Source: a virus
Length of the DNA stretch: 32,831 bases
Direction: 5' to 3' (one strand)
Virus genome (UHGV): UHGV-0163035
How positions within the stretch are numbered: the stretch's first letter is position 1; each line of letters starts with the position of its first letter. Below the pieces are notes generated by a model that was not told where the DNA came from, searched no databases, and saw only the letters and a list, made by a program, of their open reading frames with translations. The translations under genes were made by a program, and so were the position numbers. Below are positions 12,390-12,567 of the stretch, one piece after another.

Positions 12390-12439
12390 GCGTTTTTTCA
12401 AAAAAATTCTTGATTTTTTCCGGAATACCATATATACTA

Positions 12440-12567
12440 TGTTTGTTCGGATTTCCTCCGAATGTCGCCCTTTCGGGGGCGCGGAATTGATGTTTCTGCC
12501 GTCCTTTTGACAATTTCGGCACAAACAAGCAAAAGCCCCGGTATGCATATCAGCTACCGAGGCTTTT
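12440..12567 (+). ncRNA. ncRNA-3: I-C repeat-like unit plus segments antisense to the island mRNA leaders
   Basis: Promoter TTGATT-17-TATACT (12410-12438); GTCGCCCTTTCGGGGGCGCGGAATTGATG from 12464; several hairpins; terminator 12531-12567. Confidence 0.6.

Follow-up and report, generated by a model that had tools for sequence, protein, structure and literature searches.

What does a short non-coding segment of phage DNA do when it repeats, in the same order, sequence blocks from the leaders of two neighboring operons on the opposite strand? This question is raised by a locus in the UHGV virus genome UHGV-0163035 (32,831 nt, analysed over its whole length and referred to here as the window). 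An earlier note on this DNA had proposed that the segment specifies a trans-acting RNA, ncRNA-3, which switches off the counter-defence genes of both operons. The genome is that of a temperate phage and encodes structural and replication functions, a repressor and an integrase; the segment lies in a 2.5-kb island between the integrase and amidase genes which contains two strong minus-strand promoters, P-A and P-B, small genes that matched no known family, a gene for an HTH protein and three non-coding units on the plus strand (Table 1). We favor, with a probability of roughly 0.6, the reading that ncRNA-3 represses translation of the first gene in both island operons by antisense pairing at two sites, and that it carries a built-in mimic of a type I-C CRISPR repeat. 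We infer its expression, its kinetics and the regulatory order from sequence and from models.

Table 1. Features of the island, in window coordinates
Feature	Position	Strand	Remarks
ncRNA-3 promoter (predicted)	12410..12438	+	-35 at 12410-12415, -10 at 12433-12438; adjacent to P-B and divergent from it
ncRNA-3, predicted small RNA of about 123 nt	12445..12567	+	start inferred from -10 spacing and onset of conservation
Hairpin H1	12446..12462	+	contains block 1 (12450-12460); complementary to Shine-Dalgarno (SD) region of both leaders
Type I-C CRISPR repeat mimic	12464..12495	+	stem-loop 12466-12481; tail from 12482, including middle block
Hairpin H4	12497..12521	+	15-nt loop 12502-12516 with block 3; complementary to predicted 5' end of both mRNAs
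Predicted bidirectional terminator	12531..12567	.	from fold; common to ncRNA-3 and the converging HTH gene
Leader B, short type, without middle block	12318..12354	-	predicted target, -18.0 kcal/mol, rank 2 of 41
Promoter P-B	12361..12389	-	inverted repeat 12364-12382, likely HTH operator
98-aa gene behind P-B	12021..12317	-	no known family; AcrIC5 homologue at same position in 13 of 28 loci
Leader A, long type, three blocks	13843..13893	-	predicted target, -24.0 kcal/mol, rank 1 of 41
Promoter P-A	13900..13928	-	inverted repeat 13903-13921, likely HTH operator
125-aa gene, first of operon A	13465..13842	-	no family matched
89-aa acidic protein, paralogue 1	13182..13451	-	no family matched; not a predicted target
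89-aa acidic protein, paralogue 2	12899..13168	-	no family matched; not a predicted target
HTH_3 protein, likely Aca-like repressor of P-A and P-B	12571..12774	-	PF01381, E 2.8e-8
ncRNA-1	11856..12017	+	similar promoter, 5' hairpin, type I-C-like repeat 11914-11953, terminator
ncRNA-2	13970..14135	+	direct-repeat partner of ncRNA-1; repeat mimic 14026-14064

The integration site of related phages is a tRNA 3' end, and the window has a tRNA-like attachment site at 11638-11663, the junction region of which is matched by one host spacer with a TTC motif. The orientation of the island between the integrase and amidase genes varies, that of L015, L014 and L030 being opposed to that of the window, L023 and L027. 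The form of the island that bears AcrIC5 is inverted relative to the window and is without ncRNA-1 and ncRNA-2.

The three collinear blocks were found at exactly the positions that had been reported for them, and no other copy exists on either strand of the window. Block 1, GATTTCCTCCG, begins at 12450 and 13846, with a 10-nt form additionally at 12321; the middle block, GAATTGAT, begins at 12484 and 13864 only, being absent from leader B; and block 3, TCCTTTTGACA, begins at 12345, 12502 and 13884. The best two ordered exact blocks shared with ncRNA-3 sum to 22 nt for leader A and 21 nt for leader B, values that none of 500 dinucleotide shuffles reached (maxima 19 and 18); the match between the RNA and the leaders exceeds chance. 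Two details of the original description were only partly upheld: the range 12410..12567 taken as RNA includes the promoter, and the RNA itself is predicted from near 12445; and of the outer blocks, said to lie largely in hairpin loops, block 3 does so in the H4 loop (11 of 11 nt) but block 1 has just 5 of its 11 nt in the loop of H1. The two target promoters (13889-13928 and 12350-12389) form imperfect palindromes that extend from the -35 hexamer as far as the +1 region, and these palindromes could partly preserve leader block 3 for DNA-level reasons. At the predicted start of leader B (window 12356-12354) there is an ATG that shares the reading frame of the 98-aa gene, unlike its counterpart in leader A, which is out of frame.

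The minus-strand promoters upstream of the leaders gave 12/12 and 11/12 consensus matches, and the plus-strand promoter upstream of ncRNA-3 gave 9/12. Because the scan as a whole returned 15 sites where 13.2 were expected, the case for the ncRNA-3 promoter is one of conservation: neither hexamer differs among the 28 loci that we compared (the extraction pattern required both), and the spacer occurs in 14 variants. The predicted fold of the RNA consists, in order, of H1, a middle hairpin, H4 and the terminator. Its stability is modest, with 17 of 500 shuffles as stable as the core and 1 of 500 as stable when the terminator is included, and the terminator hairpin is retained across loci while its loop varies. 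A closing stem (12440-12446/12522-12527) was rejected; it forms only with bases upstream of the predicted start and is not conserved. Rfam returned no match at gathering score in the window, ncRNA-3 included, and this is no test for this repeat class because Rfam also failed to detect the genuine array of the host that is present in L222 and L235. Expression data came from 8 of 20 listed runs, all as contigs, which give neither strand nor ends; among the pieces listed, the RNA-library contigs over ncRNA-3 are of low depth, and one starts upstream of its promoter.

Co-folding of ncRNA-3 gave -24.0 kcal/mol with leader A and -18.0 kcal/mol with leader B, which placed these leaders first and second among 41 hand-picked start regions of the phage, the next three being at -15.4, -15.2 and -15.0 kcal/mol. 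The comparison of duplex energies with shuffled controls, which had been suggested as a check on the antisense proposal, came out in its favor: for each leader, 0 of 200 shuffled versions bound as strongly, as did 0 of 200 shuffled RNAs with leader A and 1 of 200 with leader B. Both the ranks and the strength relative to shuffles argue for the antisense reading, although the three unrelated start regions at -15.0 to -15.4 kcal/mol overlap the range of the weaker cognate pairs. The strongest contact in the models is that of the H4 loop with the mRNA 5' end (opening cost 0.2, net -11.9 kcal/mol for A and -10.9 for B); the SD contact through H1 has an opening cost of about 7 kcal/mol and nets -8.2 (A) and -6.6 (B), and a middle contact contributes -4.5 kcal/mol with leader A only. 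The SD sequence is fully paired in both modelled complexes. It should be noted, on the other side, that block 1 is partly a generic anti-SD sequence and lies mostly within a stem. The internal start regions of operon A at 13451, 13168 and 12774 are poor targets (-8.9, -6.3 and -6.5 kcal/mol), so that direct control would reach only the first gene of each operon.

We gathered 28 distinct loci by protein and pattern searches, all of them from one phage group or derived from it; L225 does not differ from the window over this stretch and gives no independent support. Mean pairwise distances among the 28 loci were 0.022 for H1 and 0.011 for H4, as against 0.219 in the promoter spacer, 0.251 in the middle part and 0.135 in the terminator. 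H1 exists in 3 variants, both changes of which still pair, as G-U; H4 is identical in 24 loci, two single changes each break a pair, and its unpaired 15-nt loop is altered in just 2 of the 28. Conservation is inflated in those subsets of loci whose search patterns fixed part of H1 or of the 3' arm of H4, and the census was therefore repeated by integrase alone. This yielded 19 loci at 98-100% identity, 16 of them with H1, H4 and leaders and two cut off near the attachment site. In the last, L269, the whole cassette between ncRNA-1 and ncRNA-2 is gone, RNA and targets having been lost together. This joint loss favors the antisense reading, as does the persistence of the blocks in loci where the genes behind the leaders have been exchanged.

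Covariation in related phages, which the earlier note had named as a check, proved weak. There is a single matched change in RNA and target, a C>T in the loop of L012 and in its adjacent leader; but changes in the loop of L018 and in the leaders of L025, L039 and L211 are unmatched, and no two-sided compensatory change was observed in H1, H4 or the terminator, the three helices counted (the middle hairpin was left out). For the middle block, two RNA types tend to accompany two leader types, with 5 distal and 2 opposite exceptions among linked loci. All 50 of 50 cognate RNA-leader pairs bind in the models, at -10.8 to -24.3 kcal/mol, and the cognate mean was -18.2 kcal/mol as against -17.6 with the RNAs permuted (1 of 2000 permutations). 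The effect is small, was obtained among related loci and is confounded by linkage, which tempers what it adds to the antisense reading.

The element appears narrow in range so far, being confined to one phage group. In the search for ncRNA-3 homologues, 15 of 17 viral and 22 of 40 metagenome matches were real, as was 1 of 120 among genome contigs, and a relaxed pattern search returned known contigs only. None of 31 loci in which the integrase shares 35-51% identity contained ncRNA-3 according to a covariance model, and the same held for HTH and AcrIC5 loci at greater distance; annotated phages gave weak matches only, over the leader and promoter part.

The proposal of a trans-antisense off-switch is thus supported by energy, target rank, near-invariance of H1 and H4, and joint loss; as first put forward it was incomplete, in that only first genes are predicted targets and that a further part of the RNA was overlooked. 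By sequence likeness, the middle of ncRNA-3 is a mimic of a type I-C CRISPR repeat, with GAATTGAT as its 3' tail. A 32-nt unit closer to the canonical type I-C repeat forms the middle in 16 of the 28 loci; it typically has 2 nt, then a 7-bp stem, then a tail ending in GATTGAAAT or GATTGAAAC. Each of the 17 middle variants, that of the window among them, can be aligned to the host repeat so well that no more than 3 of 1000 shuffles equal it. The mimic of the window is degenerate: five bases found in its nearest relatives are missing from it, and its stem is followed by C-G-G. Units of the 32-nt type mostly have U-A-G there.

The host array to which these alignments refer was recovered from four metagenome loci as a 33-nt repeat beside Cas1 and Cas2, and its Cas1 is best matched by the type I-C Cas1c, in a partial match under the full-length cut-off. 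Ten of 41 distinct host spacers match the window with no more than 6 mismatches, 5 of them with a TTC motif; judged by these matches, the host type I-C array targets this phage. The mimic has the features of a Racr in sequence and fold, a stem-loop and tail like the repeat of the host subtype, and also in layout, being intergenic and behind a promoter in a phage that is without cas genes and whose host is of the same subtype. In ncRNA-1 and ncRNA-2, which are direct repeats of each other, the type I-C-like repeats end like the host repeat and lie about 500 and 1600 bp from the mimic of ncRNA-3; we regard both as Racr candidates. A near-canonical mimic in ncRNA-3 goes mostly with absence of ncRNA-1 and ncRNA-2 (14 of 16 loci) and a degenerate one often with their presence (7 of 12), associations that are confounded with lineage. 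Recombination between ncRNA-1 and ncRNA-2 appears to explain the deletion of the L269 cassette.

If ncRNA-3 acts as we favor, the following order of events may be envisaged. On entry of the phage, P-A and P-B would fire ahead of both the HTH protein and the RNA, with a burst of anti-CRISPR products as the result. ncRNA-3 would build up from its own weaker promoter, which is without an HTH operator, and its open H4 loop would capture the unstructured 5' end of the mRNA. This tether would then let the GGAGG region invade H1, so that the ribosome is excluded, and the HTH protein would turn off transcription in parallel. The repeat mimic would likely engage host Cas5c/Cas7 too, as a Racr-like decoy.

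That an HTH layer exists beside the RNA, as had been assumed, is supported by the comparison of loci: there are two recognition-helix types, and the inverted repeats at both promoters differ accordingly (an operator was obtained for 26 of 28 rows), and the protein is likely to be an Aca-like repressor of P-A and P-B. The two HTH types and two operator types constitute a natural specificity switch. The description of the regulated genes as counter-defence genes is supported by relatives, in which a 58-aa AcrIC5 homologue (PDB 7yhr, E 1.8e-10) lies behind P-B and its adjacent leader in 13 of 28 loci; the window has no such gene. The 98-, 125- and 89-aa proteins of the window matched no family in Pfam, PHROGs, NCBIfam, PDB or Atlas, and for this reason their counter-defence label rests on position; a structure model of the island 89-aa protein had a pLDDT of 49.6. 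With AcrIC5 in relatives and an HTH protein whose promoters bear inverted repeats, the island is likely anti-CRISPR-like.

The mimic lies between both pairing arms in 28 of 28 loci, and it is possible, though we hold the idea tentatively, that ncRNA-3 is a CRISPR sensor. Cas5c would cut the base of the mimic, or Cas5c/Cas7 would coat the 3' part, and the anti-SD arm would be split from the tether; translation of the anti-CRISPR genes would resume only in cells with type I-C machinery, and the consumed RNA would double as a decoy. Cas5c is described in PMC8524198 as cutting the repeat where its stem ends on the 3' side, and targeting of the phage by the host type I-C array fits a sensor as well. 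When the RNA is split at the predicted cut, binding in the models weakens from -24.0/-18.0 kcal/mol to -12.0/-9.9 for the 5' part and -14.6/-11.5 for the 3' part; yet these fragments still bind, and the 3' part alone covers most of the SD of leader B. Also, U-G-G stands directly after the stem in only 4 of 28 mimics. According to PMC8524198, the B. halodurans Cas5c reads U-G-G at this place and the S. mutans enzyme tolerates changes there. The relation between mimic quality and presence of ncRNA-1 and ncRNA-2, with lineage as a confounder, fits a redundant decoy better than a sensor.

A decoy and nothing else is an unlikely account of ncRNA-3. It would make the RNA a solitary type I-C repeat of the Racr kind, with leader-like flanks that arose by duplication or are kept for stability only. 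The repeat likeness, the RNA's own promoter, the subtype shared with the host and an AcrIC5 neighbor as for RacrIC1 all agree with this, and ncRNA-1 and ncRNA-2 have the same layout without antisense loops. However, the mimic is the most variable part of ncRNA-3 and the antisense parts are the least variable, and stability fails to explain why a long unpaired loop is kept identical to the 5' end of the leaders.

We consider it improbable that pairing at the 5' end serves to stabilize the mRNA, or to keep a silent mRNA intact, instead of acting as a simple off-switch. Streptococcal FasX provides an analogy for mRNA stabilization by 5'-end pairing, and the extreme 5' end is indeed the strongest and most accessible site in our models. 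The SD arm is conserved also, however, and is modelled as fully paired, which predicts a block of translation.

Very improbable, in our estimate, is a crRNA-like guide of the Cracr/CreR type that would bring the Cascade complex of the host to P-A or P-B or to one of the host's own promoters, and guiding to the phage promoters in particular is disfavored. The order of parts (repeat, then a stretch of spacer length, then a hairpin) resembles such a guide, and type I-C Cracrs are described in the available part of 10.1101/2024.10.29.618823. However, the distance from tail to block 3 ranges from 16 to 26 nt and the would-be seed differs among variants. When 5 of the 28 variants were compared, at 5 tail lengths, with the phage and partial host loci, the best PAM-adjacent matches covered 4-12 positions (position 6 free); no PAM-seed match reached block 3 of a leader, and the sole leader match ended after 7 positions. 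A decayed duplicate leader without function, for which the collinear direct repeats make an origin by duplication plausible, is barely credible: near-invariant H1 and H4 beside a diverging spacer and middle argue against a decaying copy, hairpin arms flank the blocks, promoter and terminator are retained, and the RNA is present in 16 of 17 assessable loci found by integrase.

The two-site antisense reading has precedents. RNAII of pAD1 and RNA-OUT of IS10 illustrate two-site pairing to targets derived from direct repeats and capture of an mRNA 5' end by a loop; in contrast to these, ncRNA-3 has no evident toxin or transposase target. In the C4 RNA of phage P1, one loop acts on the ribosome site and another on an upstream site, as given in the available text of PMC5320573. 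ncRNA-3 resembles C4 of P1 and P7 as a predicted trans-acting phage RNA with segments complementary to a ribosome site and to an upstream site, and the suggested likeness to two-site pairing holds in that separate segments face the SD and the 5' end, but less well in that block 1 is only partly looped. The Rfam C4 model did not match ncRNA-3 at E up to 10, and C4 was absent among 18 weak matches in the window. C4 is processed by RNase P from its target operon, whereas ncRNA-3, to judge from its layout, has its own promoter and terminator on the opposite strand; it differs also in having hairpins in series, likely anti-CRISPR operons as targets, and a CRISPR repeat mimic.

With RacrIC1, ncRNA-3 shares a solitary repeat mimic behind a promoter, a subtype that matches the host, and, in relatives, proximity to an acrIC5 homologue. 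RacrIC1 is co-transcribed downstream of acrIC5 according to the available text of PMC10651486, whereas ncRNA-3 is divergent and stands alone, with antisense arms against acr leaders; five motifs from the present RNAs are absent from 9 text supplements of that paper. Cracr, CreR and CreA likewise have a repeat-like unit followed by a spacer-like stretch, and a regulatory role. The Cracr search, as described in the accessible part of 10.1101/2024.10.29.618823, required PAM-proximal DNA pairing of at least 9 bp, and ncRNA-3 has no such match at the leaders in the 5 variants compared, nor has it a fixed register. The island HTH protein resembles Aca proteins in having inverted repeats in several neighboring promoters. 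Published control of acr expression, in the available portion of 10.64898/2026.07.27.740549, is protein-based, by Aca on DNA and by Aca2, an RNA-binding protein and second translational layer on acr expression, on the 5' UTR; here the predicted translational layer is an RNA and not an Aca protein, and the leaders are nearly unstructured. The word "antisense" is absent from the accessible portion of that 2026 survey of Aca regulation, as is "anti-CRISPR" from that of a review of phage small RNAs (PMC12197685), and the portions of the open-access literature available to us contain neither an antisense small RNA on acr leaders nor a Racr with antisense arms.

In its predicted features, then, ncRNA-3 joins two known kinds of RNA, a C4-like antisense repressor and a Racr-like repeat. 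If the trans-acting role is true, it adds a new layer to anti-CRISPR control, and fusion to the mimic would mean that a lysogen could silence costly anti-CRISPR genes yet answer host immunity. Should the sensor possibility prove true, it would be an RNA-only immune sensor that couples Racr and Acr. The common leader also marks the family-less small genes of the island as anti-type I-C candidates.

Several further anti-defence candidates were encountered in related loci. The same leaders precede proteins of 148, 244-323 and 64-67 aa in L212 and L039 (in both beside the HTH gene), L016, L018 and L019, and in L015 (1815-2654) a 279-aa Cys-rich protein is encoded after acrIC5. AcrIC5 homologues (79-86% identity) occur also in L163, L164 and L165, unrelated phages of 17-18 kb that are without ncRNA-3, where they are surrounded by many small genes. 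Finally, an 825-bp piece of the phage island was observed in the host type I-C array itself (L222, positions 2329-3153; also L205, L235 and L204), where it lies near the trailer end as one giant spacer between two full repeats. It contains a gene fragment, the HTH gene, ncRNA-3, P-B and the first bases of the P-B leader, has 86% identity to L212 over its length, and is placed such that the phage promoter points into the last repeats.
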